Shown here in pieces: positions 2-53,001 of a stretch of 64,000 bases of DNA. This DNA is from Longimicrobiales bacterium. GTDB taxonomy: Bacteria > Gemmatimonadota > Gemmatimonadetes > Longimicrobiales > RSA9. The first letter of the stretch is position 1, and the number at the start of each line of letters is the position of its first letter. A program made the position numbers and the translations under genes. Location: assembly GCA_036381195.1 (NCBI GenBank), contig DASVDH010000078.1, forward strand, positions 10,250 through 74,249. Direction: 5' to 3'. The notes under the pieces were generated by a model. It had not been told where the DNA came from, ran no database searches, and saw only the letters and a list, made by a program, of their open reading frames with translations.

Positions 2-448
2 CTCGAGGAGACGGTGGACCGGGTTCTCGCCGCGGACGCGATCGCCGTGGTGCCCTGGGGCTTCGGGAAATGGTGGCTCGGCCGGGGGAGGCGGGTCGCC
101 CGGCTGATCGAGCGCGCTCCCCCGGGCCTTTTCCTGGGCGACAACGCTGGCAGGCCGGAGCTCGGCCGGCGCTCCAGACTCTTCGACCTGGCGGCCGAGC
201 GCGGAGTGCGCGTGCTTCCGGGGACCGATCCCCTGCCCTTCCGGAGGAGCGCGGCGCTGCCGGGGCGCTACGGGTTCGCGCTGCCCGCCGGACTCCATCC
301 GCAACGGCCTGCGGAAGGGTTGAGGCGGGCCCTCCTCGACGCGACCGCGCAGCCGCGCATTTTCGGGCGGCGCGCGCGGCCGCTCCGGTTCCTGCGCGAC
401 CAGACGATGATCAACCTGAGAAAGTACGTCGGAGGGCCGGCCGCGTGA
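2..448 (+). CDS. hypothetical protein, C-terminal part (5' end lies outside the window)
   Basis: The frame of ORF 14..448 stays open back to nt 2. Composition is coding-like (...VVPWGFGKWWLGRG...LFLGDNAGRP...). Its TGA (446-448) overlaps the GTG start of the next gene (GTGA). No family recognised. Confidence 0.5.
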   Translation, partial: LEETVDRVLAADAIAVVPWGFGKWWLGRGRRVARLIERAPPGLFLGDNAGRPELGRRSRLFDLAAERGVRVLPGTDPLPFRRSAALPGRYGFALPAGLHPQRPAEGLRRALLDATAQPRIFGRRARPLRFLRDQTMINLRKYVGGPAA

Positions 449-1620
449 GAGTCCTCGTCGTCGCCCCCGAGCCCTTCTTCTCGCCGCGAGGCACGCCGTT
501 CAGCGTGTACTACCGCACCCTCGTCACGGCCGAGCTGGGAGCGCGCATCGATCTGTTGACGTACGGCGAGGGGGACGACGTCGACATCCCCGGAGTCCGG
601 GTCATCCGCATCCCGCGGTTCCCGTGGCTCGGGCCGATCCGGATCGGGCCCTCGTGGCCGAAGCTCCTCCTGGACATCGTCCTCCTCGCGTGGACGGTGG
701 CCCTCCTCGCCCGAAACCGCTACGACGTCGTCCATGCGCACGAGGAGGCCGTGTTCTTCTGTCGTTACCTGAAGCCGATCTTCGGGTTCAGGCTGATCTA
801 CGACATGCATTCCAGTCTTCCGCAGCAGTTGCGGAACTTCCGGTTCAGCTCCTCACGCGCGCTGATCCGGGTGTTCGAGGGCCTCGAGGACAGCAGCTTG
901 CGGGCGGCCGATGCGGTGATCACGATCTGTCCGGATCTCGCCGATTACGCCGTGCGCCGCATTCCGGACCCGAAGCGTCATTTCCTGATCGAGAACTCGA
1001 TCTTCGAGCCGGTTCGGCTGCGAGCGGGCGCGCCGCGCCGCGCGGCCGGAGCCCTGGCTCCACCCGAGCTGCCGGGCGATCGGCTGATCGTGCTCTATGC
1101 CGGGACGTTCGAACCCTACCAGGGGCTCGACCTCCTCATCCCCGCGTTCGCGCGGGTCCGGGCGAGCCGGCCCGATGCGCTGCTCGTGCTGGCAGGAGGC
1201 CAGCCCGCGCAGGTGGACCGTTACCGCCGGCTGGCCGAGGAGGAGGGCGTCGGCGAGGCCTGCGTCTTCACGGGCATGCTGGAGCAGGAGGCGGTGCGCC
1301 AGCTCGCGCGCCGGGCGGCGGTGCTGACGTCGCCGCGGACGGCGGGCATGAACACGCCGCTGAAGATCTACGAGCAGTTGGCGAGTGGGATCCCGCTGGT
1401 CGCCACGCGTGTGGCGGCTCACACCCAGGTCTTGAACGAGGACGTCTGCTTTCTCGTCGACCCGGAGCCGGACAGTCTGGCGGCCGGGATCCTGGCCGCG
1501 TTGCGCGGCGATGAGCGGTGCCGCCGGGTCGTCGCCGCCGCGCGCGCCCTCTACGACGCCCACTACTCGCGTACCGCGTACGAGGCCAAGATGCGGGCGC
1601 TCCTGCAGGCCGTCTCCTGA
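445..1620 (+). CDS. glycosyltransferase, GT4/group-1 type (GT-B fold)
   Basis: Same frame as ORF 70..1620, whose first ~125 aa are Arg/Pro/Ala-rich junk. GTG at 445 gives VRVLVVAPEPFFSPRGTPFSV..., a typical GT-B N-terminus. The C-terminal part (...SPRTAGMNTPLKIYEQLASGIPLVATRV...) resembles the EX7E region. GTGA overlap with the upstream stop. Confidence 0.85.
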   Translation: MRVLVVAPEPFFSPRGTPFSVYYRTLVTAELGARIDLLTYGEGDDVDIPGVRVIRIPRFPWLGPIRIGPSWPKLLLDIVLLAWTVALLARNRYDVVHAHEEAVFFCRYLKPIFGFRLIYDMHSSLPQQLRNFRFSSSRALIRVFEGLEDSSLRAADAVITICPDLADYAVRRIPDPKRHFLIENSIFEPVRLRAGAPRRAAGALAPPELPGDRLIVLYAGTFEPYQGLDLLIPAFARVRASRPDALLVLAGGQPAQVDRYRRLAEEEGVGEACVFTGMLEQEAVRQLARRAAVLTSPRTAGMNTPLKIYEQLASGIPLVATRVAAHTQVLNEDVCFLVDPEPDSLAAGILAALRGDERCRRVVAAARALYDAHYSRTAYEAKMRALLQAVS

Positions 1621-3500
1621 TGTGCGGCATCGCCGGCATCATCTCGCTCGGCGGGGCGGCCCCCACGCACGAGGCGCTCCGTGCCGCCTGCGACGCCCTG
1701 GTGCATCGCGGGCCCGATGACGAGGCGATCGACATCCGCGGCCAGGTGGGGCTGGGGATGCGGCGCCTCGCAGTCATTGACGTGGCCGGCGGGCGCCAGC
1801 CGTACGTCAACGAGGACGGGACGGTCCGCGCGGTCTTCAACGGCGAGATCTACAACTTTCGCGAGCTGCGGAGATCTCTCGCGGCGCGTGGGCATCGGTT
1901 CACATCCCGGACGGACGGGGAAGTGATCGTCCATCTCTGGGAGGAACACGGACCGGAGTTCCTCCGCATGCTCAACGGGATGTTCGCGATCGCGCTCCAC
2001 GATGCCCGGCGGCAGCGTGTTGTCCTGGCGCGCGACCGGCTGGGCGTGAAGCCGCTGTACTACGCGCGGACGAGGGACCACCTCGTCTTCGGCTCGGAGG
2101 TGAAGGCGATCCTCGCCTCGGGCCTGGTGGACCGGGGGCTGGACGTGGATGCGCTGGGCGAGTTCCTGGCGTGGGAGTACGTGCCCGCGCCGCGCACGCT
2201 GTTCACCGGGATCATGAAGCTGGAGCCCGCCCAGTCGCTCGAGATCCACCTCGCGAGCTCACGGCTGTGCTTCCGCACCTGGTGGGACATCCCGCTGCCG
2301 GAGGAGCAGGAGGGGCTCGCGCCGAGGGGGGCCGGCGAGTGGGCGGAGGCGGTGGAGGAGAAGATCCGGACGGCGGTCCAGCGGCAGCTCATCAGCGACG
2401 TGCCCCTCGGCGCGTTCCTGTCCGGAGGCGTGGACAGTTCGCTGGTGGTGGCCGGCATGGGGGATGCCCGCGTCTTCACCATCGGGTTCGACGACCCCAC
2501 CTACAACGAGCTGCGATGGGCGCGCGCCGTGGCGGCGCACCTGGGCGTGCGCCACGAGGTGGAGGTGATCCGGCCGGACGCGATCGAGCTCTTCGATCGA
2601 ATCATGCCGTTCCTCGACGACCCGATCGCGGACTCGTCCGTCTTCCCGACGTACCTGGTTTCGCGTCTGGCACGCCGGGAGGTGACGGTCGCCCTCACGG
2701 GTGACGGCGGGGACGAGCTGTTCGGCGGATACGAGACGTACGTCGCGCAGCAGCTCGCAGGGGCGTGGGCGCGAGTCCCGCGACTCTTGAGGGAGAGGCT
2801 GCTCGCGCCCCTCATCCGGCGCATGCGGCCGCGCCCCGCCAAGAAGGGCCTGGTCAACAAGGCGAAGCGGTTCGTGGACGGCCTCGAGCACGACGAGGCG
2901 CTGGGGCATGCGCGGTGGCGGCTGTTCCTGGGCGAGCGCTTGCGGCGGGAGCTGTTCACGCCGGAAGCGGAGAGCGCGCTGCGCGCGCCGGCCGGCAGCC
3001 ACATCCTGCGGCTGATGAAGGCCGCCGGCCCGCGATCTCCGCTGGCGAGCGGGCTCTACACCGACGTGAAGAGCTACCTCAGCGACAACTGCCTGCTGAA
3101 GGTGGACCGGATGTCGATGGCGTGCTCGCTCGAGGTTCGGGTGCCGTTGCTGGACCACGAGCTGGTCGAGCTCGCGTTCGCCGTGCCGGATGGATTGAAG
3201 GTCCGGCGCGGCGAGACGAAGGTCCTGCTGAAGGAGGTCGCGGCGCGCGCGGTTCCGAGGTCCTGCGTCTACCGCCAGAAGGAGGGGTTCAGCACGCCGA
3301 TCAAGCATTGGCTGCGCGGGCCGTTCCGCCCGATGCTGGAGGAGGCACTGGCGCCCGAGCGCGTGCGTCGGGAGGGGCTGTTCCGGGCCGAGGCCGTCGA
3401 GACGCTCAAGCGAGAGCACCTCGCGGGCCGGGCCAATCACAGTCACGTGCTGTGGGCGCTCCTGGTCTTCCAGGATTGGCGGCAGCGCTGGCGCGTATGA
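1620..3500 (+). CDS. asnB: asparagine synthase (glutamine-hydrolysing) family amidotransferase
   Basis: The internal ATG at 1620 gives MCGIAGI... (Ntn-type Cys2 nucleophile). Also present: GPDDE, FNGEIYN and the PP-loop SGGVDSS. The ATG shares one nt with the upstream TGA (TGATG). Confidence 0.9.
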   Translation: MCGIAGIISLGGAAPTHEALRAACDALVHRGPDDEAIDIRGQVGLGMRRLAVIDVAGGRQPYVNEDGTVRAVFNGEIYNFRELRRSLAARGHRFTSRTDGEVIVHLWEEHGPEFLRMLNGMFAIALHDARRQRVVLARDRLGVKPLYYARTRDHLVFGSEVKAILASGLVDRGLDVDALGEFLAWEYVPAPRTLFTGIMKLEPAQSLEIHLASSRLCFRTWWDIPLPEEQEGLAPRGAGEWAEAVEEKIRTAVQRQLISDVPLGAFLSGGVDSSLVVAGMGDARVFTIGFDDPTYNELRWARAVAAHLGVRHEVEVIRPDAIELFDRIMPFLDDPIADSSVFPTYLVSRLARREVTVALTGDGGDELFGGYETYVAQQLAGAWARVPRLLRERLLAPLIRRMRPRPAKKGLVNKAKRFVDGLEHDEALGHARWRLFLGERLRRELFTPEAESALRAPAGSHILRLMKAAGPRSPLASGLYTDVKSYLSDNCLLKVDRMSMACSLEVRVPLLDHELVELAFAVPDGLKVRRGETKVLLKEVAARAVPRSCVYRQKEGFSTPIKHWLRGPFRPMLEEALAPERVRREGLFRAEAVETLKREHLAGRANHSHVLWALLVFQDWRQRWRV

Positions 3501-5002
3501 TCGAGCGGCGGCCCTCGGATTTCGCCCGGGACCGGTACGACCTGCTCGTCGTGGGCGGAGGGGTCTACGGCGTCGCGCTCACGCTGGAGGCGGCGTTGCG
3601 CGGGCTGCGGCCGCTCCTCGTGGAGCGAGCCGACTTCGGGGGCGGGACGACATGGAACAGCTTCCGGATCATTCATGGGGGCCTGCGCTATCTGCAGACC
3701 CTCGACCTGCGGCGCTTCCGGGAATCGGTGCGTGAGCGTCGATGGTTCTTACGCCACTTCCCTGAGGTGGTCCGGCCCTTCCCGTTCGTGATGCCGATCT
3801 CCGGCAAGGGGATGCGCCGGGTACCCGTCCTCCGCGCCGCGCTGCGCCTCAACGACCTGCTGTCCTCGCGGCGCAACCATGGGGTGGAATCCACGCACCA
3901 CATCGGCGGAGGCCGGATCCTGGGCGTGCCGGAGGCGCTGGAGCTGGTACCGGGCCTCGACCGCCGCAAGCTCCGCGGAGCCGCGCTCTGGTACGACGGC
4001 GTGATGACGTGTGCGCCGCGCGTGCTCATCGAGATGCTCCACTGGGCGTGCGCGGCCGGAGCGCGCGCGCTGAACTACGTCGAGGCGAAGCGGCTGCTGG
4101 TGGAGGGGACGCGGGTGGCCGGGCTCGAAGCCGTGGACCGCACTAATGGCGAGACCCTGGTCTTCCGGGCGCCCGTCGTGGCCAACTGCGCCGGCCCGGA
4201 CGTGCGTGGCCTGGCGCGGCGGTTGGATCGCGATGTCCCGCACCTGTTCTCGCCCTCCATGGCGTTCAACCTCCTGATCTCCAGGTCGGCGCCATCCCGG
4301 TTCGGCGTCGCGGTGACGGCGGACCGCCCCGGCGCGAGGACGTATTTCGTGCGGCCGTGGGGCGACTGGTCGTTCGCGGGCACGTGCCATGTCCCGGCGA
4401 GCGACGAGGCGGCCGTACACGGGCCCGGCCCGCGCGACGTCGAGGGGATGATCGCCGACCTGAACGCCGGATTGCCGGGCTGGGGCGTGACGACGGACGA
4501 CGTGCGCCGCGTCTTCTGGGGCGTGCTCCCGGTCGCGACCCGCGGGACCGTTCGCTTGTCGACCCGGCCCGTGCTGCACGATCATGCACGGAGCGGCGGG
4601 CCCGCCGGGCTGTTCAGCGTGTCGGGCGTGAAGTTCACGACGGCGCGCCGGGTTGCCGAGGTCTTGCTGGCGGCGATCCTCGAGCGGGTGCCCGGCATGC
4701 GGCCCGGCCCGGTTTCCCCGATCGAGCGCCCGGAGCCTGCCCCCGTCCCCACCGCCTCCGAGTTCCGCTCGCTGCTGCAAGCGGAGCCCGCAGCCGCCCG
4801 TTCCCTCGTCGCCCGGCTGATGGAGCGCGAGGCCGTCATCGCACCGGATGACCTGCTCCTGCGACGGACCGATTGGGGAGCCGACCCGGAGCAGCGGGAC
4901 GTGTTCGCCAGGGAGTTGGGGAGCGTGCTCGATGCGCGCTCCCACGGGCCCGGGGCGGTCGAGCAGCCGGCGGCGGCAGGCGGGGCCGAGGGCCGCGCCT
5001 GA
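3497..5002 (+). CDS. FAD-dependent oxidoreductase, glycerol-3-phosphate dehydrogenase/oxidase-like
   Basis: ATG 3497 overlaps the asnB stop (ATGA). N-terminal dinucleotide-binding motif DLLVVGGGVYGVALTLEAALRG. RIIHGGLRYL motif and a GlpD-like C-terminal extension. Confidence 0.8.
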   Translation: MIERRPSDFARDRYDLLVVGGGVYGVALTLEAALRGLRPLLVERADFGGGTTWNSFRIIHGGLRYLQTLDLRRFRESVRERRWFLRHFPEVVRPFPFVMPISGKGMRRVPVLRAALRLNDLLSSRRNHGVESTHHIGGGRILGVPEALELVPGLDRRKLRGAALWYDGVMTCAPRVLIEMLHWACAAGARALNYVEAKRLLVEGTRVAGLEAVDRTNGETLVFRAPVVANCAGPDVRGLARRLDRDVPHLFSPSMAFNLLISRSAPSRFGVAVTADRPGARTYFVRPWGDWSFAGTCHVPASDEAAVHGPGPRDVEGMIADLNAGLPGWGVTTDDVRRVFWGVLPVATRGTVRLSTRPVLHDHARSGGPAGLFSVSGVKFTTARRVAEVLLAAILERVPGMRPGPVSPIERPEPAPVPTASEFRSLLQAEPAAARSLVARLMEREAVIAPDDLLLRRTDWGADPEQRDVFARELGSVLDARSHGPGAVEQPAAAGGAEGRA

Positions 5003-5637
5003 GGAGCTCTTCCCGGACGGCGAGCGAGCGACCCGCTCCCGAGCGTAGAAGGCCGCCGTTGCGTCCGGGCCACAGTTGTCGCGCTGTCGTCCGGAGGCTC
5101 GCCGCCGCATCCCGCAGCCGCGGACGCGTCCAGGTCCGGATCCGCCGCGGGAGAGGGCAGTACTCTGCGATGCCGCCCCGGGCGCCGGTGACGTGTCCCG
5201 CCGAGCCGCGCCGTGGCGGGCTTCGTGCATCGCGCGCGGGCCGAGGTCAGGGCCAAGGTGACCTCGTGTGCATCCTGCCGGACGGAGCGGGGGACCCGGA
5301 AGGATCGAGCCTCCGCCGGGGCGGACGACACGGACTTCTGCGCCCCCGCACCAGGACGTGGAATTCGATCGAGACTCGAAGCCGCCGCCACGTGGGGTCT
5401 GGCCGCGCGGCGCCGCGGCCGGGGCGTCGTTCGCGTGGACGGCTCCCGTCGGCTTGCGGTGAGGCGGCGACGGCGCTGATGCGCCGCCGCCCCCGGCGCC
5501 ACGGCTGATTTCACGCGGCTGCCGCTCCGCGCGCTCCGGCTCGTTCGGCGCGTTGCAATGCCCGTATCGCCGGCGCGCCGTTGCATCACCACCGGTTGCG
5601 TTCGGGTGCGACGGGGAACCAAGCACGAGAGGGCCGC

Positions 5638-7512
5638 ATGATCCTGGGGACCATCGAGGTGCCCTCCTGCCCCGGCCGGATCGCGGAGCGCTGGACGGCC
5701 TGGGGACTCGGCGACGGCGACGCGGCCTTCGAGCGCTGGGAAGAAGACGGCTTCCTTGCCGCGATCATCTCGAGCGGCGCACCTGCGCTGGACGAAGGCC
5801 GGCTGCTGCATCACGATCCCGCCTCGCGGGTGACCGCCATCCTCTACGGGGAGCTCCACGATGCGAGCGAGCTGGTCCGGCGGCTCGGCGGAGGACCGCG
5901 GCCAAAGGATGGGTCGCTGCTCGTGGAAGGGTATCTCCGCCTCGGGACCGAGCTCTTCCGCCTGCTCAACGGCAGCTTCGTCCTGGTGATTCGCGATCCC
6001 GCCCGGGGCCGGGTGTGGATCGCGCGGGACCATCTCGGCATCGAGTCGCTCTACTACCGCCGGACTGGCGAGGCGGTGCACTTCTGCTCCGAGCTGCGGC
6101 CGCTGACGAACGTCGGTGGCGGCCCGTGTCTGGAGCCGGCCGTGGTGCTCCGCTACCTCCTGCTCAACTACAACCCCGGCTTCGAGACGCTCTACCGCGG
6201 GATCGAGAAGCTCCGCGCTGGGCACGTGCTTCGGATCGAGGCTGGCGGCATCCGCACCGAGCGCTACTGGGCGCCATCGTTCCGCGAGAATCCCGTCAAG
6301 TCGCGCGAGGAGTACCGCGAGGAGCTCCGTTCGCTGATCCGCGATGCGGTCCGCATCCGGCTCCAGCCCGGCTACGCGGCTGGCGCGTACCTGAGCGGCG
6401 GCATGGACAGCAGCTCGGTCGTCTGCCTGATGACCGAGGAGCTCGGCTCGCCGATCCACACGTTCTCGTTCCGCTGCGCCGTCAAGTCGTTCGACGAAGC
6501 GATCTATGCCCGAGCCGTGAGCCGGCACTGCGGCACCCGACACCACGAGGTGCCCTACGACGCGGGCAGCGCGCGGGAGATCGTCGAGCTCGTCCGGCTG
6601 CTGCACGAGCCGATCGCCGATGTCGGGATCGAAGTCGCGACGTTTCTCCTGGCGAAGAAGGCGGCAGGGCTGGCCGGTTACGTGCTGACGGGCGATGGCG
6701 GCGACGAGCTGTTCGCGGCGCACCCGGTCTACGCGGCGGACAAGGCGGCCGAGTGGTTCGAAGCGCTTCCGCCCCTCGTCCGCCGGCCGCTCGTCAACGT
6801 GCTCCAGCGGCTCCCGGACAGCAGCAAGAAGAAGAGCGCCATGGTCAAGCTGCGGCGCTTCGCATACAGCGTCGGGTTCCCGGGAGAGTTCCACAGCAAC
6901 CGGTGGCGGATCTACTACAAGCCGGATGAGCTCAGGCAACTGCTCTCTCTCGACTGGCAGGCGGTCCTGGACACGGCCGATCCGCTCGCGCCGCTCCGGA
7001 CGATCTACGCCGAGGCGGATGGCCCCGATCATCTGAGCAGGAGCCTGTACGGGGACTACCAGACCGTGGTGGACTTCTATCTGCGCCGGATGCAGGTGGT
7101 CCGGCGGTTGGGTTTCGTGGGGCGCTACCCGCTACTCGACCACCGCCTGGTCGAGTACGCGGCGCGGATCCCCTCGGGCCTGAAGGTCACGAGTGATGCG
7201 GCCACCAAGTTCCTGTTGCGGGACGCGATGGCCGACGTGCTCCCCCCGGAGATCCTGGCGCGCAAGGACAAGCTGGGCAACAGCGTGCCGCTCAAGAACT
7301 GGCTGCGGGAACGCCCCGAGCTCCAGTCGCTCGTGGAGGAGTGTCTCTCGCCGGAGGCGGTGCGGCGGCGCGGCATCTTCGATCCGGACTCCGTACAGCA
7401 GCTCTGGCATCGCCATCTCGGTGGCCGGGAGAACAACAGCCATCGCATCTGGGCGATGGTGGTGTTCGAGCTGTGGTGCCGGAACAACATCGATGCGGGG
7501 GCCTCCGCATGA
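5638..7512 (+). CDS. asparagine-synthase-family protein lacking the N-terminal Cys nucleophile
   Basis: The ATG at 5638 gives MILGTIE.... No Cys follows the start in this or any in-frame extension. AsnB-like core is retained (LNGSFVLVIRD, HLGIESLYY) with an intact PP-loop LSGGMDSS. Confidence 0.8.
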   Translation: MILGTIEVPSCPGRIAERWTAWGLGDGDAAFERWEEDGFLAAIISSGAPALDEGRLLHHDPASRVTAILYGELHDASELVRRLGGGPRPKDGSLLVEGYLRLGTELFRLLNGSFVLVIRDPARGRVWIARDHLGIESLYYRRTGEAVHFCSELRPLTNVGGGPCLEPAVVLRYLLLNYNPGFETLYRGIEKLRAGHVLRIEAGGIRTERYWAPSFRENPVKSREEYREELRSLIRDAVRIRLQPGYAAGAYLSGGMDSSSVVCLMTEELGSPIHTFSFRCAVKSFDEAIYARAVSRHCGTRHHEVPYDAGSAREIVELVRLLHEPIADVGIEVATFLLAKKAAGLAGYVLTGDGGDELFAAHPVYAADKAAEWFEALPPLVRRPLVNVLQRLPDSSKKKSAMVKLRRFAYSVGFPGEFHSNRWRIYYKPDELRQLLSLDWQAVLDTADPLAPLRTIYAEADGPDHLSRSLYGDYQTVVDFYLRRMQVVRRLGFVGRYPLLDHRLVEYAARIPSGLKVTSDAATKFLLRDAMADVLPPEILARKDKLGNSVPLKNWLRERPELQSLVEECLSPEAVRRRGIFDPDSVQQLWHRHLGGRENNSHRIWAMVVFELWCRNNIDAGASA

Positions 7513-8654
7513 CGAGACCACGCGTGCAGGCTCCGGGGACCGCCGCGCCCACACCGCTTCCACGGCGAGACGGAGGTGCTTCGCCAGGGGTCGAGCGCCG
7601 GCCGTCCGCGGTGGAGCGCGACCTCAGCGCAGCCGGCGTCGCCATCGCGGTATTGAACTACAACGGGCGCCCGGTGCTTCCGGACTGCCTCGACTCGATC
7701 AGGCGGCTGGCGTCCGCGCCTGGCGAGATCCTGTTGGTGGATGATGGCAGCACGGACGGCAGTCCCGCCTGGGTTCGCAGTCATTACCCCGAGGTCCGCG
7801 TCGTCGAGCTGGGCGCGAACACGAGGTGTCTGAACAAGGTGCGGAATCGTGCCCTGCGGGAGGCGGAGCGGGATCTCGTGCTCCTGGTGGACAACGACGT
7901 CGTACTCCGCCCCGATTGCCTGCGCGAGCTCCTCGCGGCGATGGCGGCGCTGCCGAACGCGGCTGTCTGCATGCCTCGCACGCTGTACCAGCACGACCCC
8001 GGCCGGATCTATCAGGATGGACAGGTCCTCCACTACGTCGGCGCGACCTGCGCCATCAACCGGAATCACCCCCTGGCGGAGGCGGACTCGGCGCCCCGCC
8101 TCAGCATCGGCTGGGGAGTCCAGCTCATCGACCGGCGCAAGGCGATGGAGGTCGGGCTCTTCAACGAAGAATACGTCATGGGCTGGGGTGATGACGGCGA
8201 ATTCAACCACAAGATGAACCTGGCGGGCCACTTCTGCTACCACGTGCCGACGGCGGTCGTGTACCACAAGCGAGTGTCCGGCGCCCGGCGCTACTACGGC
8301 AGCGTCCGCAACCGCTGGAGGTTCTTGCTGGAGTGTTACCAGCTCAGGACGCTCCTCCTCTGTGCACCCGGGCTGCTCGCGTACGAGGTCGCACAGGTCG
8401 CTTTTCTGGCCATGAAGGGTGCACTGCGGGATTACCTCCGCGCTGCAGCCTACATCGGGCGGAATCTGCCAGCGATCCTGCGGGAGCGGCGCCGCATCCA
8501 GCGCCGAAGGCGCGTCGGCGATGCCCAGCTCATGGGGAGCGGAGAGATCTTCATCGTTCCGGAGTACGTGGATTCACCGGTCCTGGCCGTCGGCATTCGG
8601 GTGCTCAGCGCGATGCTGGATCTGAATTGGCGGCTCGTGCGCCCGTTCATCTGA
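7509..8654 (+). CDS. glycosyltransferase family 2
   Basis: ATG 7509 overlaps the upstream stop (ATGA). Motifs VAIAVLNYNGRP, LLVDDGSTDGS and LLVDNDVVL. Confidence 0.85.
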   Translation: MTRPRVQAPGTAAPTPLPRRDGGASPGVERRPSAVERDLSAAGVAIAVLNYNGRPVLPDCLDSIRRLASAPGEILLVDDGSTDGSPAWVRSHYPEVRVVELGANTRCLNKVRNRALREAERDLVLLVDNDVVLRPDCLRELLAAMAALPNAAVCMPRTLYQHDPGRIYQDGQVLHYVGATCAINRNHPLAEADSAPRLSIGWGVQLIDRRKAMEVGLFNEEYVMGWGDDGEFNHKMNLAGHFCYHVPTAVVYHKRVSGARRYYGSVRNRWRFLLECYQLRTLLLCAPGLLAYEVAQVAFLAMKGALRDYLRAAAYIGRNLPAILRERRRIQRRRRVGDAQLMGSGEIFIVPEYVDSPVLAVGIRVLSAMLDLNWRLVRPFI

Positions 8655-8655
8655 C

Positions 8656-9753
8656 ATGAGTCTCGCGCTCGGGAACACGCTGCGTGAGGGCGCGTCGTTC
8701 CTCCGCGCGTACGTCGGAGGGGGATACCCCGCCTTCATCTATCCTCCTGGCCGGCTCGGCGATGAGCTCCCGGTCTTCTTCTACCACGGCGTGGACGGCC
8801 GGACGTTCGAGCGGCACCTCCAGTACCTGCAAGCCAACGGGTATCGGACCGTGGCCTGTGACGAGGCCGTCGAGCTCGCTGCGGAGCGGCGGAGCGGGGG
8901 CCGTGCCGTGATGCTGACGTTCGATGACGGGCTCGCGAGCGTATACCTCAGCGCGTTTCCCCTCGCACGACGCCACGGCGTGAGGATCGTCCTCTACATC
9001 GTGCCGTCCCGCATCGGGCGTCCGGGGTTCCTGACGTGGGAGCAGTGCCGGGCGATGCACCGTTCGGGCCTGGTCGACATCCAGTCCCACTCGTATGCGC
9101 ACAAGCGCGTGGTCACGGCACTGGCGGTCCAGGGGATCCTGAACGGGCCCCCGGCCGATGCGTGGGGAGTCCCCGGCCTCGACCCGATCGGGCTGCCGGA
9201 GCGGCCGGCCCACCTGCCGGTTTTCGAGGCGGCATCGTTGTTCGAGGCGTCGCGGGCGTACCGGTTGCCGGCGGCCTTCTGGGAGGACTGGCTCGCTCTC
9301 CAGCGCCGCGAGGGGGCGAGCCGGGCCCGTGCGCTGCGCGGTCGATTGCTCGAGCTCCTCGAGGCGCACGCGCGTGGCGTGCAGGTCGTGGACGGCGAGG
9401 CACTGCGCCGGGAGATCCGCGAGGACCTCGAATCCTCGAGGGCCTGCATCGAAGACCAGCTCCCGGGTCACCGGGTGCGCCACTTCGCTTATCCCTGGCA
9501 CCGCCACGGCCCCGCCGCCTGGATGGCCCTGGAAGCGGCCGGCTTCCGCTCGGCGGCGATCGGGCTGGGGATCCCGGAAGGGAGAAAGCCGGCCGGTCTC
9601 GCGGAATCGGTGCTGGAGCTGCGCCGCGTGAACGCGGACTTCCTGCTTTGCCTGCCGGGCAGAGGGCGGACACCGTTCCGGCGGGTGCTCGCTGGCAAGG
9701 CGATGCGACGCTTCAGGAGCACGAACCGAGGAGGGCAGGGTGGCCATGTCTGA
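8656..9753 (+). CDS. polysaccharide deacetylase (NodB-homology/CE4-like)
   Basis: VMLTFDDGLASVY and IQSHSYAH motifs. Starts 2 nt after the upstream stop. Confidence 0.8.
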   Translation: MSLALGNTLREGASFLRAYVGGGYPAFIYPPGRLGDELPVFFYHGVDGRTFERHLQYLQANGYRTVACDEAVELAAERRSGGRAVMLTFDDGLASVYLSAFPLARRHGVRIVLYIVPSRIGRPGFLTWEQCRAMHRSGLVDIQSHSYAHKRVVTALAVQGILNGPPADAWGVPGLDPIGLPERPAHLPVFEAASLFEASRAYRLPAAFWEDWLALQRREGASRARALRGRLLELLEAHARGVQVVDGEALRREIREDLESSRACIEDQLPGHRVRHFAYPWHRHGPAAWMALEAAGFRSAAIGLGIPEGRKPAGLAESVLELRRVNADFLLCLPGRGRTPFRRVLAGKAMRRFRSTNRGGQGGHV

Positions 9754-10696
9754 GCGACGCGAGGCCGGTACACCGTCCGTCTCCGTGGTCGTGGTCAACT
9801 GGAACGGCAAGAACGTGCTCCCGCAGTGCCTCGACTCGATCCTCGCCCTCGAGTACCCGATCAAGGAGACGATCGTCGTCGACAACGGATCCGTGGACGG
9901 CTCCGGGGCGCTCCTGAGGGAGCGCTACGGGGAGCGGGTGACCGTCATCTGGAACGAACGCAACCTTGGCGCGCCGGTGGCAAGGAACCAGGGCATGCGG
10001 CACGCCGTGGAGTCGGGCAGCGATTTCGTGTTCACGCTCGACAACGACCTGACCATCGCCCCCGATGCGATCGCGCCGCTGGTCAGGCTGATGCAGGGCG
10101 ATCCGAAGATCGCGATGGCGGGCGCGCTCATCCTCCACCAGGATCGTCCCGACGTGATCTTCTCGGCGGGCCACATGGTCAACTGGACCCAGAACCTGGT
10201 CCGGACGCTCGGCGCCAACCAGAGATTGCAGGGCCAGTTCAGGGAGATCTGGGACGTGGATTACGTCGGCAGCGGGGCGATGCTCACTCGCCGTTCCTAC
10301 ATCGAGCAGCACGGCTACTTCGATGAAACGCTGATCGGCTACGGTTACGAGGACACCGAGTACGGATACCGCGCCAAGCAGTTGGGGTTCAGGGTCGTCT
10401 GCTGCGCCGATGCCAGGGTGTGGCACCGGCCGCATTCGGGGATCGGGCGCTACAGCTATCGCAAGAAGTACCTGGAGGCGCGCAACGCCGTGGTGTTCAT
10501 GAAGCGGCACGGCAACCTGTTCCGCTGGTCGAAGTACCTGTTCTACGTGCTGCTCGGATTCGGTTATGCGGCGGTTCGCGAGGGGCTGCGCGGCAACTTC
10601 GCGGGAGTGAGGGGAAAGATGCGCGGGTTCATCGACGGCCTGCGCGGTCGCGAGGATCTGGCGTACCGACTCCTGGACCCGAGCGAGCCGGCATGA
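9740..10696 (+). CDS. glycosyltransferase family 2
   Basis: VSVVVVNWNGKN, VVDNGSVDGS and TLDNDL motifs. GAGGAGGG lies at 9728-9735. The start is either GTG 9740 or ATG 9746. Overlaps the upstream gene end. Confidence 0.85.
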   Translation: MAMSERREAGTPSVSVVVVNWNGKNVLPQCLDSILALEYPIKETIVVDNGSVDGSGALLRERYGERVTVIWNERNLGAPVARNQGMRHAVESGSDFVFTLDNDLTIAPDAIAPLVRLMQGDPKIAMAGALILHQDRPDVIFSAGHMVNWTQNLVRTLGANQRLQGQFREIWDVDYVGSGAMLTRRSYIEQHGYFDETLIGYGYEDTEYGYRAKQLGFRVVCCADARVWHRPHSGIGRYSYRKKYLEARNAVVFMKRHGNLFRWSKYLFYVLLGFGYAAVREGLRGNFAGVRGKMRGFIDGLRGREDLAYRLLDPSEPA

Positions 10697-12246
10697 CGGA
10701 CACGGCGAATCAGGAAACCCGCGTCCTCGGCGCCGGCGCGAGTGTTGCGCTGGGAGGAGCCCTGGCCGGGAGCGCGCTGACGTACCTCACGGGGCTCATC
10801 GTCTCCCGGCTGGTGGGAGCCGAGCTCCTCGGCGTCTACTTCCTGGCGATCATCTGGCTCACCCTCGGCAGCACCATCGCCCGACTGGGCCTGTCGGATG
10901 CGCTGTTGCGCTTCGTTCCACCCGCGCGGCTGCGCGGGGATCGCACGGAGGCCAGTCTCGCGATCAAGACCGCGGTCTGCCTCGGGGCCGGGGCCGGGAT
11001 CGTGTTGGCCGGGTTGTTCTCGATCCTCCTCGTGTGGCTCCGTGCCGGTTCCTCCAACAGACTCGTGGCCTCGTATCTCGGCTGGTTCCTCTGGGCCCTG
11101 CCACTCCATGTGATCTTCACGCTGCTGCTGATGGTGATCCAGGCGCACCAGTGGATGGGCCGGGTCGCCGCGATCCGGGATCTCCTGCAGCCATTGCTGT
11201 TGATCGGCCTCACGGTCGCCCTCGTGCGCGTTGCGGGGCCCCGGATCGGGCTGGTGGGCGGATTCGTCCTGTCCCTGGCGCTGGCGATCCCCCTCGCCCT
11301 GCTCAGCGTCGAGCGGATCGCGCCCGGCGCGTTCACGACCCCGGGGTGGGCGCCGGTTCGCCCCATGTTGTTGTTCTCCCTGCCCGTGATGCTGAGCGAT
11401 GCGAGCAGCTACGCCTACCGCTGGCTGGATACGCTGGTCATTGGCCGCCTCCTGACGCTCCGCGACGTGGGGATCTACAACGCGGCGAGCCGGACCGCGC
11501 TGCTCGTGTCGCTGGTTCTGACGGGCGCCAACGCCATCTATGCCAGCGTCGCCGCCGGGTACTTCAACACTTCCCGGGTGGACCAGCTCCAGCGGGCGCT
11601 GCACGCCGCCATGCGCTGGTGCCTCCTGCTCGCGCTGCCGCTGGTCCTCTTCCTGGTCGTCGGCGGCGATTGGATCCTGTCGCTCTGGGGGCGCGAGTTT
11701 TCCGAAGCCGCGCCGGCGCTCGTCATCCTGGCCGGCGCGCACCTCGTCGGAATTCCGGCGGGCCTGTTCGCGTACACGCTGGTGATGTGCAACCGGGAGA
11801 GGGTGGAGCTGCTGAACACCCTCGTTCTGCTGGCTCTCCTGCTCGCGACCAATCTGCTGTTGATCCCGCTCGTGGGGTTCCCGGGTGCGGCCGTTGCGTT
11901 GTTCGTGGTCAACACGCTGGCGCTGCTCGTCCGTGGCTATGAGGTGCGCCGGCTGCTGGGAGTGCAGCCGTTCGCGGCGAGTCTCCTGAAGCCGATCGGC
12001 GTGGCGCTGCTCGCGCTGGTCGTCGCCTCCGTCGTGAGGAGCACGATTCCCCTGCTGCTGCCCGCAGCCGGGCCGGCGCCGGCCGTGGCGGACGCGCCTG
12101 CGCTGCTCGCATCACTCGCCGTGCTCGGCTCGATCGTCGCGATCGCGTTCTTCGGCCCCTGCCTGCTGGTGGACGCCCAGGGACGGGAGCTGGTCCGCGT
12201 GTCCCTGCTCCGGCTCCTACGCCCGGGCCGTCCCGCCGCGGAGTAG
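10693..12246 (+). CDS. Wzx-type oligosaccharide flippase / polysaccharide biosynthesis protein (MOP superfamily)
   Basis: ATG 10693 overlaps the upstream stop (ATGA). 517 aa with hydrophobic segments throughout (about 12-14 helices by eye), typical of Wzx/RfbX-like proteins. Confidence 0.8.
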   Translation: MTDTANQETRVLGAGASVALGGALAGSALTYLTGLIVSRLVGAELLGVYFLAIIWLTLGSTIARLGLSDALLRFVPPARLRGDRTEASLAIKTAVCLGAGAGIVLAGLFSILLVWLRAGSSNRLVASYLGWFLWALPLHVIFTLLLMVIQAHQWMGRVAAIRDLLQPLLLIGLTVALVRVAGPRIGLVGGFVLSLALAIPLALLSVERIAPGAFTTPGWAPVRPMLLFSLPVMLSDASSYAYRWLDTLVIGRLLTLRDVGIYNAASRTALLVSLVLTGANAIYASVAAGYFNTSRVDQLQRALHAAMRWCLLLALPLVLFLVVGGDWILSLWGREFSEAAPALVILAGAHLVGIPAGLFAYTLVMCNRERVELLNTLVLLALLLATNLLLIPLVGFPGAAVALFVVNTLALLVRGYEVRRLLGVQPFAASLLKPIGVALLALVVASVVRSTIPLLLPAAGPAPAVADAPALLASLAVLGSIVAIAFFGPCLLVDAQGRELVRVSLLRLLRPGRPAAE

Positions 12247-12252
12247 CCCGCG

Positions 12253-13905
12253 ATGAGCGAGCATCCGACGGGTGCGCGAGTCGTGCGGCAGAGGGGGCGA
12301 CGCGCCTGGCCACGACTGCTGTGCATGGCGGTCACGGGCGCTCTCTACATCGTCCTCGCAAACGATGGCAGGCACCACTGGCACGAGTGGCGCCACGTCT
12401 ACTCCGCGGCGCACTTCACCATCGAGCAGCTCGCCGCGGGCGAGTTCGACCCCGGGCCACCCCCGGAGAGAACCGCCACCGAGGCGGCCGGCTGGTACTG
12501 GGGACAGTTGGGGCACGAAGCCCTCCTGCGCGCCATCATCCGGCTGGCGGGGCCGGGGCTGGGGACGGTCGCGCTCCTGGAATGGCTGTACGGCCTGCTG
12601 GTTCCGCTGGCGGCGCTCCTGACCTTCCTCACGCTCCGGCGCCTGCCGCTCGGAACCGATCCGTCCCTGATCTCCGCCGCCACCCTCCTGTCGCCCCTCG
12701 CGGTCTACCTGGGGTTCAAGCTGATGGGGGAGGTGCCGGCGCTGCTCTTCGCGGCGTTCGCCGGATACCTCTTCCTGGCGGGCCTCCGCGCGCGGCATCG
12801 CCTTGCGGCCGCGGCGCTCCAAACGGGAGCCGGGCTGTCCCTCGCGCTCTGCTTCCTGTGCAAGGTGTTCATGCCCCTCTCGTTCTTCGGGTTCGCGCTG
12901 GCGTTGCCCGCCGCGTTCCCTGAATACGGCTGGAGGCGGGTGTCGGGGCGATTGCTGCTCACGACGGGAGTCGCGGCCGCGGCTGCGGCCTGGGCAGGCG
13001 CCGCGGTTTCCGTTCGGCCCGCGGACTGGGCGCTGGTGTACGTCTTCTTCAGGGACTACCGGCAACCGGCGGCGGCTTCCGCCTTCGGCCTGCTGAGCGC
13101 CGGGTCCCTGCTCTACGCGCTGGTCCCGTTCTCCTTCCTCGCCCGGGACTCGAGGGCGGTGCGGTTCTTCGCTGCGTGGCTGGGCTTCACGGCGGCTCCG
13201 GTGCTCCTCCTGGCGACCAATTTCGTCGAGGCCCGCTACCTCGCCGTCGCTCTGGTTCCGTTCGCGGGCCTGGGCGTTGCCGGCCTGGAAGAGATCGTGC
13301 GCCGCGTTCGCGGGCCCGTGGGAGATGCGGCCCTTCGAACGCGCAGCGCCATCGCCACCCTGGTGATCGTGCCCGTGGCGACGGCCGGCGCGCTCCCCTT
13401 CCTCCCGTACGAGATGAGCTGCCGGGAGCTGGTCAACCTCGTCACCCGGATCTGGGGCGAAGATCCGGATGCCGCCCTCCTGGTGCCGTGGAATTACACC
13501 GATTATCACCTCCTCGCGTTCGCCTTCCCGGGCCGGCCCATCTACCTGGTCCAGTCCCCCGTTGACGACCGCGGCGTCGTGTACCGGGACAGTCTTTGGG
13601 AACGGCGCCAGGAGCGGAACTACGGCCCGGCGTTCATTCCCGGCCCGGAGGACCTCGGCCGCGTGGCGGAGACGACGAGGGTCTACCTCGGCCACGGCGT
13701 GCTGCCCCCCATTGCCAATCTCCGGAAGCTCGCCTCGAGTCTGGGCATCACGCCGATCGTCCGGAGCCTGGACGCGCTGCAGCCCCGGAGGCACATCACG
13801 GAGAGCTGGCTGTGGAGCAGTCCGGAGGTACGGCTGCAGGAAGCGCTGCGCGTGGGCCGGTACGCCGCTTACCGTGTCGAAGCTACGCCGGCGGCTCCGC
13901 CCTGA
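12253..13905 (+). CDS. polytopic membrane protein, GT-C (ArnT/PMT, GT39/83)-like glycosyltransferase
   Basis: N-terminal ~380 aa contain many hydrophobic helices. A C-terminal ~150 aa soluble domain ends ...YAAYRVEA. Layout matches the ArnT/PMT_2-like proteins at 27599 and 41681. Confidence 0.6.
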   Translation: MSEHPTGARVVRQRGRRAWPRLLCMAVTGALYIVLANDGRHHWHEWRHVYSAAHFTIEQLAAGEFDPGPPPERTATEAAGWYWGQLGHEALLRAIIRLAGPGLGTVALLEWLYGLLVPLAALLTFLTLRRLPLGTDPSLISAATLLSPLAVYLGFKLMGEVPALLFAAFAGYLFLAGLRARHRLAAAALQTGAGLSLALCFLCKVFMPLSFFGFALALPAAFPEYGWRRVSGRLLLTTGVAAAAAAWAGAAVSVRPADWALVYVFFRDYRQPAAASAFGLLSAGSLLYALVPFSFLARDSRAVRFFAAWLGFTAAPVLLLATNFVEARYLAVALVPFAGLGVAGLEEIVRRVRGPVGDAALRTRSAIATLVIVPVATAGALPFLPYEMSCRELVNLVTRIWGEDPDAALLVPWNYTDYHLLAFAFPGRPIYLVQSPVDDRGVVYRDSLWERRQERNYGPAFIPGPEDLGRVAETTRVYLGHGVLPPIANLRKLASSLGITPIVRSLDALQPRRHITESWLWSSPEVRLQEALRVGRYAAYRVEATPAAPP

Positions 13906-15949: not shown

Positions 15950-16927
15950 TCAGCGCCGGATGCGGCCACGCTCGCCGTCCCTCCCTGGCCGGCGGCCGTC
16001 GGCATCGCTCCGTTGCCGCGGGCGCGCCGCCGCAGTGCGCCTTTTCCGACGGTCAGCGATGCTGGCCACCCAGAAGCAAGCCAGCAGCGCGAGCCCGAGA
16101 TACGACGGGTAATCCCGGTGCCCCCCATGGCGATGATACCTCGCCACGCGGACGCTATCCGGCGTGATGAACGTCCCTTCGATCGAAGCCACCCGTGCCC
16201 CGTCGAGTGGAGGGCCGACGAGGGTGATCAGCTCCCTGCCGGTGGTCCTGACCATGAGCGCGCCATCGCGCCGCACGATCTCCGCACGGTCGAACCCCAC
16301 CCGCTGTCCGACCCGGTCCTCGCCGCGGCGCAGCGTCCCGACGAAATGACTGTCGCTCGCCTCGACGCTCGCGGTGAAGAGCAGCGGGCCGGCGACGTAG
16401 GTTGCCAGGAGCGAGAGCGCGAGCATGGCCCGCGCCGGCCGCCAGCGGGCCGGGCCGATCGCGTATCGCGTCCGGCGCGGCCACTCCGAGGCCACGAACG
16501 CCGCTCCGCACAGCGTCAGCCCCAGGACGATGCCGCTCTCGGGCCAGAACCAGCCGAAGTTGAGGTCCCTCCACGAGAACGGCGCGAAGAGGTGTACGCC
16601 GTTTCCCCATTTCGTCTCGGCGGCGTCGAGGAGGAGATGCAGGAACGCTCCCGTCGCCAGCAGGGCGAAGACTTGCCGGGGCATGGCAGAGCAGAGGGCG
16701 AGCGCGCCGCAAAGGACGAGGGAGAAGGCGAGCGATGCCTGCACGATGGCGTAGAGCCGCATGGTGTAGGGGGCCAGCACCGGGCCGAGCATCCCGTTCA
16801 GGCGCTGGAGGATCCAGGGGATGTCGGGGATGATGCAACTGAGGAGGAGCCACTTCGGATCGGCCTGCCGGAACGTCAGCCGGGCGGCCGCTCCCTGTGC
16901 TGCGAAATGCGCCAGGGCGTTGGGCAT
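15950..16927 (-). CDS. membrane-bound metal-dependent hydrolase-like protein (DUF457/YdjM-like N-terminus)
   Basis: N-terminal ~170 aa have His/Asp-containing hydrophobic helices (HFAAQG, FLHLLLDAAE). A further soluble segment is followed by a C-terminal TM and an Arg-rich tail. Confidence 0.55.
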   Translation of the reverse strand: MPNALAHFAAQGAAARLTFRQADPKWLLLSCIIPDIPWILQRLNGMLGPVLAPYTMRLYAIVQASLAFSLVLCGALALCSAMPRQVFALLATGAFLHLLLDAAETKWGNGVHLFAPFSWRDLNFGWFWPESGIVLGLTLCGAAFVASEWPRRTRYAIGPARWRPARAMLALSLLATYVAGPLLFTASVEASDSHFVGTLRRGEDRVGQRVGFDRAEIVRRDGALMVRTTGRELITLVGPPLDGARVASIEGTFITPDSVRVARYHRHGGHRDYPSYLGLALLACFWVASIADRRKRRTAAARPRQRSDADGRRPGRDGERGRIRR

Positions 16928-19615: not shown

Positions 19616-19631
19616 GGGCACGTGTCTTGCT
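19616..19631 (+). promoter_or_regulatory. candidate sigma-54 (-24/-12) promoter for the deacetylase-FemAB-DegT-GT operon
   Basis: Plus strand reads GGGCACG-TGTC-TTGCT against consensus TGGCACG-N4-TTGCW, with only the first base deviating. Predicted TSS is near 19643, followed by AGGAG at 19654-19658. Confidence 0.65.
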
Positions 19632-19665
19632 CCCCGGGCAGCGCCACGTCGACAGGAGTTCCACG

Positions 19666-52791: not shown

Positions 52792-53001
52792 GCAGCTGCC
52801 TCGTTCGTCGCGATTGAACCAAAGACCACCGAGCGTGAATCCCCCGGAGGGCAAATCTCCGGATCACCGGCGGCCAAGCGGGCGTGGCGGGCGGGGAGCC
52901 CGCTGTAGCCCTCGACTCTGCGCTCCCGTCTTTCCGCGGGTTTGCTCTGAGCAACGACGATGGTGGGCTTTGGTCTTGTTCGCGGCTCGGTCGCCCGGAG
53001 C

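Follow-up and report, generated by a model that had tools for sequence, protein, structure and literature searches.

A clade of AsnB-family proteins without a glutaminase site, encoded beside a canonical paralogue in glycan operons of largely uncultured bacteria

The window analysed here is a stretch of 64,000 nucleotides (70% G+C) from a Longimicrobiales bacterium (phylum Gemmatimonadota; contig DASVDH010000078.1, positions 10,250 to 74,249), and our target is its gene at 5638-7512 (+), which encodes a protein of the asparagine synthetase (AsnB) family lacking the N-terminal nucleophile (Ntn) Cys used for glutamine hydrolysis. A preliminary description had counted three AsnB-family genes in the window, two of them beginning MCG(I/F)AGI, and a six-frame scan gave the same count, with three SGGxDS PP-loops and two MCG[IF] starts. 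The gene starting at 1620 (+) combines the start MCGIAGI with the PP-loop SGGVDSS, and the one starting at 40565 (-) combines MCGFAGI with SGGIDSS; the third PP-loop, YLSGGMDSS in the scan (LSGGMDSS at 6391-6414), belongs to the target. The features of this gene are as follows.

5506-5508 (+): in-frame TGA closing the target's frame upstream, 130 nt before the start (translation of 5341-5760)
5627-5633 (+): Shine-Dalgarno-like GAGAGGG, ending 4 nt 5′ of the ATG (read from the sequence)
5638-7512 (+): the Cys-less AsnB-family gene, 624 amino acids plus stop (open reading frame and its translation)
5638-6207 (+): degenerate Ntn (pseudo-glutaminase) domain, residues ~1-190 (MAFFT alignment, numbering through 1ct9)
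6043-6045 (+): Glu136, at the position of the ammonia-tunnel gate (alignment to human asparagine synthetase, ASNS; gate role from PMC10245805)
6208-7509 (+): synthetase (ATP pyrophosphatase, adenylating) domain, residues ~191-624 (Pfam 229-614, invariant residues)
6394-6414 (+): PP-loop SGGMDSS (S253-S259), SGGxDS in 125/125 clade members
7087-7104 (+): segment R484-R489, in place of canonical K-V-D-R-M-S-M (mapped to ASNS by alignment)
7270-7281 (+): K545-L-G-N548, K545 being the invariant equivalent of AsnB Lys449

The reading frame opens with ATG ATC CTG GGG (MILGTIEVPSC), and the earlier statement that no in-frame extension of this MILGTIEVPS start supplies a Cys held up. Between the TGA and the ATG lie 43 codons with a single Cys, and because that Cys follows an Arg codon (CGT) a Met-, Val- or Leu-Cys start is impossible; the sole alternative upstream start, TTG at 5581 (MHHHRLRS...), gains no Cys. 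The trivial explanation, that a frameshift or mis-assembly hides a true upstream MCG start and that the protein is an ordinary glutamine-dependent AsnB, is thereby refuted and keeps a negligible probability: the frame is stopped at 5506-5508, there is no MCG nearby in any frame, and the Arg49, Asn74, HRGPD and GxQP signatures of the glutaminase are gone as well. An assembly or sequencing artefact is excluded because the same start occurs in three Longimicrobiales assemblies (88-90% identical proteins) and in ~120 distant homologues; the M-I-x-G start recurs in ~120 independent assemblies.

A word-indexed protein search with the target returned 878 proteins at E <= 1e-30. Among the best 120 of these (40-90% identity, drawn from JGI, ENA, NCBI and Logan assemblies) nearly all full-length proteins start M-I-[F/A/Y/L]-G. 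The closest relatives of the window are metagenome-assembled genomes (MAGs) of Longimicrobiales (Gemmatimonadota). An exhaustive HMMER scan over 1.84 billion representatives showed a sharp break in score, with full-length proteins above ~310 bits starting M-I-x-G and those below ~305 bits almost all starting MCG. A non-Cys start is otherwise uncommon, the MCG start being absent from ~4% of canonical-like library representatives, and is a fixed trait of the target's clade. A neighbour-joining tree recovers the clade as monophyletic (36/36), and its deepest split is the one between the clade and all MCG enzymes. When one genome for each of 185,579 species was scanned with a pattern, 179 species had relatives; the best 80 of these 179 genomes belong to KSB1/Zhuqueibacterota, Calditrichota, Gemmatimonadota, Nitrospirota, Desulfobacterota, Zixibacteria, Elusimicrobia and others. 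A literature search found no described Cys-less AsnB in polysaccharide loci.

We aligned 125 clade members with 62 canonical sequences (MAFFT), which places the clade Met opposite canonical Gly3, so that the ancestral 'MC' has in effect been removed (MCGIxG to MIxG). Seven clade members start 'MICG', and we considered whether this was a two-residue propeptide followed by a Cys nucleophile; the Cys aligns with canonical position 5 (MCGI-C-G) and not 2, and Arg49 and Asn74 are absent too, so this reading was rejected. Two side observations concern other library entries. The canonical-like representatives P0149, P0173 and P0246 start MSA or MSG (Ser for Cys, as in PdmN-type ligases), from which it is evident that the nucleophile has been lost more than once in the AsnB superfamily. 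In a partial Calditrichota entry, P0032, a clade-type AsnB is continuous with an ABC-transporter ATPase domain (PF00005), which may be a gene-call fusion on a 2-kb contig.

Residues of the glutamine site were numbered as in E. coli AsnB by an HMMER alignment of the window's canonical paralogue to 1ct9. The preliminary description had proposed checking Arg49, Asn74 and Asp98, and the check supports its reading. Cys1 is found in 62/62 canonical enzymes and 0% of the clade, Arg49 in 62/62 and 1%, Asn74 in 61/62 and 1%, Glu76 in 61/62 and 11%, and Asp98 in 62/62 and 17%; the HRGPD and GxQP motifs, conserved in the canonical set, are absent from the clade, and Gly75 is the only glutamine-site residue kept across it. 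The target itself has S45 at Arg49 and Y70 at Asn74, and retains G71 (Gly75), E72 (Glu76) and D91 (Asp98). The two domains also differ in mean pairwise identity, with 0.305 for the N-domain and 0.531 for the C-domain in the clade, the reverse of the canonical enzymes (0.478 and 0.377), and this reversal indicates relaxed constraint on the clade's N-domain and unusually strong constraint on its synthetase domain. The glutaminase site has thus been lost as a whole, and not the Cys alone, and on these alignments glutamine hydrolysis by the Ntn mechanism is impossible for the target protein. With its Ntn domain turned into a non-catalytic structural domain, the protein could not draw nitrogen from glutamine.

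Curated family models give a consistent picture of where the target stands. Pfam Asn_synthase (PF00733) matches residues 229-614 at 2.7e-71, and GATase_7 gives a weak, partial match to residues 60-157 (6.4e-13). The best NCBIfam match is TIGR03108 (XrtA/PEP-CTERM system amidotransferase), with 261.6 bits against a cut-off of 816.9 and over model positions 70-626 only; TIGR01536 (AsnB) gives 227.2 bits (cut-off 267.1), NF033535 (lasso-peptide cyclase) 170.8 (cut-off 525) and NF033561 (albusnodin-ikarugamycin macrolactam cyclase) 93.7 (cut-off 300), so that the target lies below the cut-offs of all curated AsnB-type families in NCBIfam. Both MCG paralogues pass TIGR01536 (457 and 489 bits, cut-off 267), the 457 bits being those of the 1620-3500 gene, whose best match is TIGR03108 with 603 bits. 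In terms of class marks, the target carries those of the AsnB superfamily (SGGxDS PP-loop, acidic GxGxDE motif, Lys449 equivalent, two-domain fold) and lacks those of a class II (Ntn) amidotransferase (the Cys, the full set of glutamine-site residues, a TIGR01536 score at the cut-off). It shares the polysaccharide-locus setting of WbpS-type (TIGR03108) enzymes and has neither their MCG start nor a score at their cut-off. Clade members are currently annotated 'asparagine synthase (glutamine-hydrolysing)', a label that is wrong for all of them and that a curated model could put right.

An AlphaFold2 model of the target, made with the clade alignment, reached pLDDT 90.2 and pTM 0.92 and is weak only at residues ~11-30, the former HRGPD region. 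A Foldseek search of the PDB with this model, another check that had been suggested, ranked TsnB9 first (TM 0.71/0.77), followed by beta-lactam synthetase (BLS), human ASNS, E. coli AsnB and carbapenam synthetase (CarA); the Ntn domains of PurF and GlmS matched too. In the predicted structure the two-domain AsnB/BLS fold, N-domain included, is retained.

The synthetase domain had been described as intact, PP-loop included, and the clade alignment bears this out, since SGGxDS, the GDGGDE motif of the E348 region (G352-D-G354-G-D356-E357) and K545 are present in 125/125 members. The target thus keeps all that is known to serve ATP binding and acyl-adenylate formation, and this invariant adenylation machinery argues against a dead protein. 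The Asp of GDGGDE at the E348 position was considered as a peculiarity of the clade and rejected as such, being common to canonical paralogues of the exopolysaccharide (EPS) type. About 50 other synthetase positions are near-invariant in the clade and unlike the canonical enzymes. R279-C280 stands for canonical G-F, H362-P-V occupies the position of AsnB Tyr357, and further clade-specific residues are D394, K398, K399, K404, R422, R424, Y426, Y427, Y474, F480, Y481, R484, R489, K553-N554 and S601-H602-R603. Many of these are basic (K398, K399, K404, R422, R424, R484, R489, K553, R603), which would suit an anionic nucleotide- or pyrophosphate-linked substrate.

Several of the changes fall where ammonia would exit the tunnel between the two sites. 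In human ASNS, Arg-142 (Ile-143 in E. coli) gates the ammonia tunnel and forms salt bridges to Asp-405 and Glu-414 (PMC10245805). At the gate, Lys is found in 62/62 of the canonical EPS-type enzymes, and 115/125 clade members have Glu (Glu136 in the target), a reversal of charge. The residue aligned with Asp-405 is conserved as Asp in the canonical set (62/62) and never in the clade (0/125), where Met or Leu takes its place (Met485 in the target), and next to it new arginines have appeared, R484 in 125/125 and R489 in 116/125 members. Beside the catalytic Lys, the Phe452 equivalent is His in 110/125 and Asn in 15/125 members (Asn, residue 548, in the target), and Tyr357 is replaced by His362. 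The pattern resembles a compensated inversion of charge where the two domains meet, and the rewired gate may either plug the tunnel or make a new binding site.

The surroundings of the gene place it in a polysaccharide operon. The following features of the window bear on this, glycosyltransferase families 4 and 2 being abbreviated GT4 and GT2 and carbohydrate esterase family 4 CE4.

70-1620 (+): GT4 glycosyltransferase (Pfam), its stop overlapping the start of the canonical AsnB (TGATG)
1620-3500 (+): canonical glutamine-dependent AsnB (MCGIAGI, WbpS-like), the operon partner (TIGR01536 and TIGR03108 scores)
3497-5002 (+): FAD-dependent oxidoreductase, GlpD-like (glycerol-3-phosphate dehydrogenase; Pfam DAO, 2.1e-33), with an ATGA overlap with the canonical AsnB
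5003-5637 (no strand): 635-bp non-coding spacer 5′ of the Cys-less gene (conservation, Rfam, folding)
7509-8654 (+): GT2 glycosyltransferase (Pfam Glycos_transf_2), with an ATGA overlap with the Cys-less gene (translational coupling)
8656-9753 (+): CE4 polysaccharide deacetylase (Pfam Polysacc_deac_1; hydropathy)
9740-12246 (+): GT2 (9740-10696) and a Wzx-type flippase (to 12246), continuing the operon (Pfam)
15950-16927 (-): YdjM-family membrane protein, a recurrent cluster member (Pfam)
38613-40565 (-): third AsnB (MCGFAGI), canonical, in a different polysaccharide sub-cluster and on a different tree branch

Synteny was examined in 88 related loci from several phyla, frequencies being counted only where at least 9 kb of flank was available (54 loci upstream, 50 downstream). 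Gene order is conserved to a striking degree. The consensus, with genes present in some loci only in brackets, is GT4, canonical MCGI AsnB, (methyltransferase), (GlpD-like), epimerase of the short-chain dehydrogenase/reductase type, hexapeptide acetyltransferase, (GT4, CE4 deacetylase), Cys-less AsnB, (flippase-like LPG_synthase_TM), (ProC), (FemAB-like), YdjM and three GT2s. Upstream of the Cys-less gene the epimerase is found in 48/54 loci, the canonical MCGI AsnB in 44/54 (81%), the hexapeptide acetyltransferase in 41/54, the GT4 of the GT4-AsnB pair in 37/54 and the GlpD-like gene in 28/54. Downstream, GT2 genes are found in 34-37 of the 50 loci, YdjM in 35, ProC in 17, LPG_synthase_TM in 15 and the FemAB-like gene in 12.

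With a canonical MCGI AsnB upstream in most loci, glutamine-dependent amidation is already supplied to the pathway. These co-located canonical enzymes group together with the window's 1620-3500 gene in the neighbour-joining tree, and their pairwise distances correlate with those of their Cys-less partners (r = 0.72, 17 loci); this is an old pair whose members have been inherited together. Such constant company, together with the catalytically dead N-domain, could also be read as the mark of a non-catalytic pseudoenzyme that would serve the co-encoded canonical AsnB in structure or regulation, for example within a heterodimer. The strict upkeep of PP-loop, acidic motif and catalytic Lys throughout the 125 members would be unexpected for such a protein, as would a C-domain more conserved than in the active canonical enzymes (0.53 against 0.38), and we regard this explanation as highly improbable. 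We consider it very likely instead that the target is a live, ATP-dependent, adenylate-forming amide synthetase of AsnB fold, with a non-catalytic Ntn domain, that acts in the cytoplasm in a conserved surface-glycan pathway.

The CE4 deacetylase next to the target in the window has no signal peptide or transmembrane segment by hydropathy and is therefore predicted to be cytoplasmic. It raises the possibility of an intramolecular cyclase resembling BLS, CarA or the lasso enzymes, in which a sugar carboxylate would be adenylated and then attacked by an amine that the deacetylase has uncovered on that residue or an adjacent one, closing a lactam or cross-linking two residues through an amide. BLS and CarA do rank among the top structural matches, and a deacetylase neighbours the target in many loci; it is nevertheless absent from about half of the complete loci, the target scores far under the lasso and macrolactam cyclase models (171 of 525 and 94 of 300 bits), and no case of ATP-dependent lactam formation in glycans is known to us, so that a cyclase seems very unlikely. 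Nor is the deacetylase supported as a universal partner that supplies the amine: it adjoins the target in the first four loci examined and yet occurs upstream in 15/54 and downstream in 11/50 loci (anywhere in 45/88). ProC and the FemAB-like gene were rejected as universal partners, given their counts downstream of 17/50 and 12/50.

Some recurrent neighbours deserve mention in their own right. ProC is a bona fide pyrroline-5-carboxylate reductase (TIGR00112, 283 bits, cut-off 197; e.g. L004:12910-13731) whose gene immediately follows the Cys-less AsnB in roughly a third of loci (L003-L006 and others), often with LPG_synthase_TM and the FemAB-like gene (PF13480), and the linked ProC and FemAB-like genes hint at amino-acid, possibly proline, chemistry in the pathway. 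YdjM (e.g. L004:14920-15483) is among the most constant cluster members. The GlpD-like FAD enzyme is recurrent, and in the window translationally coupled to the canonical AsnB; a homologue at L006:5315-7030 reaches 267 bits with NF008899, whose cut-off is 360.

The activity, the glycan substrate and the identities of carboxylate and amine are what we infer in the scheme that follows, which we hold tentatively and with slightly more doubt than confidence: the adenylated carboxylate of a sugar intermediate would be coupled to a pre-formed amine rather than to ammonia. The carboxylate, on a nucleotide- or lipid-linked sugar and most simply that of a hexuronic acid, would be adenylated, and the acyl-AMP would be attacked by an amino acid, by another small molecule with an amino group or by a sugar amine that the adjoining cytoplasmic CE4 deacetylase has released, giving an N-substituted amide. 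The ordinary glutamine-dependent step from uronic acid to uronamide would be left to the WbpS-like paralogue a few genes upstream. Every Cys-less AsnB homologue characterised so far is, to our knowledge, a ligase or cyclase that acts on a substrate amine, as BLS, CarA and the lasso cyclases exemplify, and this is one reason for favouring a pre-formed amine over free ammonia; the others are that the arrival site of ammonia has been rebuilt and then frozen across phyla, and that a dedicated ammonia-delivering paralogue has been retained alongside.

The principal rival is an ammonia-dependent amidotransferase, in which a second glycan carboxylate (e.g. of a second uronic acid) would be adenylated and converted by NH3/NH4+ to a primary amide, with the N-domain as scaffold only. 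The C1A and C1S variants of E. coli AsnB keep ammonia-dependent synthetase activity. Free ammonia can moreover reach the synthetase site of ASNS directly (PMC10245805). These two observations weigh against a pre-formed amine, since loss of the Cys alone leaves plain NH3-dependent amidation possible, and this rival also fits the intact synthetase core and the fact that the closest sequence relatives are WbpS-like, uronamide-forming enzymes (TIGR03108 as best match; PMC7468200). Further points against the proposed scheme are that no gene for a special amine is universally linked (the deacetylase is found in about half, ProC in a third and the FemAB-like gene in a quarter of loci), that among the Pfam-annotated loci one only (L006) has a UDP-sugar dehydrogenase beside the cluster, that a uronic acid as substrate is assumed, that the roles of small acid and sugar amine could be swapped, that residue roles were assigned by alignment only, and that the best 80 of the 179 positive species genomes are all MAGs. 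What tells against ammonia is, in turn, the glutamine-competent paralogue in the same operon, beside which a less efficient second route for NH3 would be hard to explain, and the region of tunnel exit and catalytic Lys, whose rebuilding and fixation across phyla resemble a new site for nucleophile or substrate and not passive decay. We know of no characterised Cys-less AsnB homologue that acts with ammonia, and on balance we judge this rival unlikely.

Coupling to a pre-formed amine can be taken one step further, to a speculative though possible view of the clade as an unrecognised glycan-specific amide ligase, which would couple the carboxylate of a sugar with an amino acid or another amine, or else a deacetylated amino sugar with a small acid, would form a fixed pair with the glutamine-dependent WbpS-like paralogue so that each operon makes two amides, and would have recruited the charge-reversed former gate to its amine site. 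More securely, the clade may be described as a set of uncharacterised, phylogenetically broad, glycan-associated and glutaminase-dead AsnB enzymes that are paired with a canonical paralogue and stand outside all curated families; it is found almost only in uncultured bacteria and probably forms an amide on a glycan without glutamine.

Other parts of the window were characterised in passing. The spacer at 5003-5637, unusually long at 635 bp, is 70-76% identical among three Longimicrobiales genomes, with highly conserved blocks that include GACCTCGTG and CATCCTGCCGG and with indels that are not multiples of three. It was rejected as a small gene or structured RNA (no codon periodicity, non-triplet indels, no Rfam match, no excess folding energy at z = +1.55) and is probably a regulatory region, the promoter and leader of a second transcription unit. 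Several distinct polysaccharide sub-clusters lie side by side in the window, as is seen from the presence also of an XrtA/PEP-CTERM-type deacetylase at 19627-20493 (+) (TIGR03006, 342.8 bits, cut-off 276.2, with DUF3473) and a Wzc-like tyrosine autokinase and chain-length determinant at 57998-60418 (+). The sub-cluster of the third AsnB has an ATP-grasp enzyme (PF15632) at 33510-34715 (-), a Wzy at 34726-36177 and a second CE4 deacetylase at 36317-37231, and it may add further amides, because the other route known for attaching amide-linked decorations to glycans uses ATP-grasp enzymes. Large open reading frames with coding-type G+C content at third codon positions and no Pfam or NCBIfam match lie at 12253-13905 (+), 46016-47716 (-), 47828-49384 (-) and 49756-52854 (-); one of the unmatched frames, of 550 amino acids, is conserved beside Wzx in Longimicrobiales loci.

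Bacterial surface glycans commonly bear amide-linked substituents on their uronic acids and amino sugars; these substituents shape antigenicity, charge and recognition by phages and the immune system, and the enzymes that install them are mostly unassigned. The clade is a well-delimited candidate for a glycan-directed enzyme that forms amides independently of glutamine, with a sharp score gap, monophyly and ~50 diagnostic residues. If the proposal is true, it would provide an AsnB-fold route to amide decorations otherwise attributed mainly to ATP-grasp or FemAB-like enzymes, and in KSB1, Calditrichota, Gemmatimonadota and further phyla that are largely uncultured, one conserved operon would put two different amides on the surface glycan. 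The fixed canonical pairing and the charge inversion at the gate would then make a natural experiment in the conversion of a two-site, tunnel-coupled amidotransferase into a single-site ligase. The principle that a Cys-less AsnB can be a ligase or cyclase is already established, and the advance here is incremental, not conceptual.

Among known systems, the lasso-peptide cyclases (McjC type, NF033535) are AsnB homologues that lack glutaminase function and make an amide (isopeptide) bond by way of an adenylate, as is proposed for the target; no lasso-type precursor peptide, B protein (leader peptidase) or transporter was found in the window neighbourhood or the 88 related loci. BLS (1jgt) and CarA (1q15) share with the target the AsnB fold, an inert N-terminal domain without the Cys and, if our proposal is right, acyl-adenylate chemistry with a substrate-borne amine, and they rank high as structural matches. 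Identity to the target is nevertheless ~15-20% by structural alignment, the phmmer match (3.2e-18) covers the N-terminal half only, and both enzymes close a beta-lactam intramolecularly on small amino-acid-derived substrates in antibiotic clusters, whereas the target lies in a glycan operon. At the AsnB E348 position, to which Tyr348 of the catalytic Tyr348/Glu382 dyad of BLS probably corresponds, the target has Asp353.

The best PDB match by sequence (9e-24) as well as by fold is the hydroxyamidotransferase TsnB9 (7ylz), which like the target has a His at the AsnB Tyr357 position (FAGH motif). Unlike the target, TsnB9 keeps the Cys nucleophile, frees hydroxylamine from glutamate hydroxamate in its N-domain and belongs to secondary metabolism.

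There are also two kinds of ligase with which the target shares the mark of the PdmN/CmoY class, a non-Cys N-terminus with an intact adenylating domain, and which agree with the earlier suggestion that AsnB homologues without the Cys are ligases or cyclases (bioRxiv 10.1101/2025.10.30.685158; PMC12783734). PdmN-type enzymes, in contrast to the Cys-containing FdmV, have a non-Cys N-terminus and ligate intact D-Ala or D-Ser to a carboxylate (bioRxiv 10.1101/2025.10.30.685158). They have Ser or Ala in place of Cys at position 2, where the target is two residues shorter, and they act on an aromatic polyketide in actinobacterial type II polyketide synthase clusters, a context unlike that of the target. 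The phage protein CmoY is an AsnB homologue that ligates glycine to 5-carboxymethylcytosine in DNA, and it was contrasted with a related cluster bearing a glutamine-hydrolysing domain (PMC12783734), which suggests that CmoY has none. It is a precedent for an AsnB-type synthetase domain as an ATP-dependent ligase of an amino-acid amine; CmoY acts on DNA, whereas the target is part of a glycan operon and still has an N-domain, though a degenerate one.

The closest relatives in sequence are the amidotransferases of the WbpS/WbqG/PGN_1234 type, which have the two-domain architecture and the GDGGDE variant in common with the target, and whose loci resemble its own: like those of the Wbp/Vim pathway (PMC7468200), they hold glycosyltransferases together with a CE4 deacetylase and, in some cases, a FemAB-like gene. 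That Porphyromonas pathway, in which WbpS makes the uronamide, VimE is a CE4 deacetylase and the FemAB-like VimA adds Ser or Gly (PMC7468200), is the nearest worked example of such a cassette, without a Cys-less AsnB. WbpS-type enzymes start MCG, keep Arg49, Asn74 and Asp98 and use glutamine to make primary uronamides, whereas the target has no glutaminase site, is 30% identical to its co-encoded WbpS-like paralogue and branches outside all WbpS-type enzymes. By sequence, the target is a divergent sister of the WbpS-type glycan amidotransferases.

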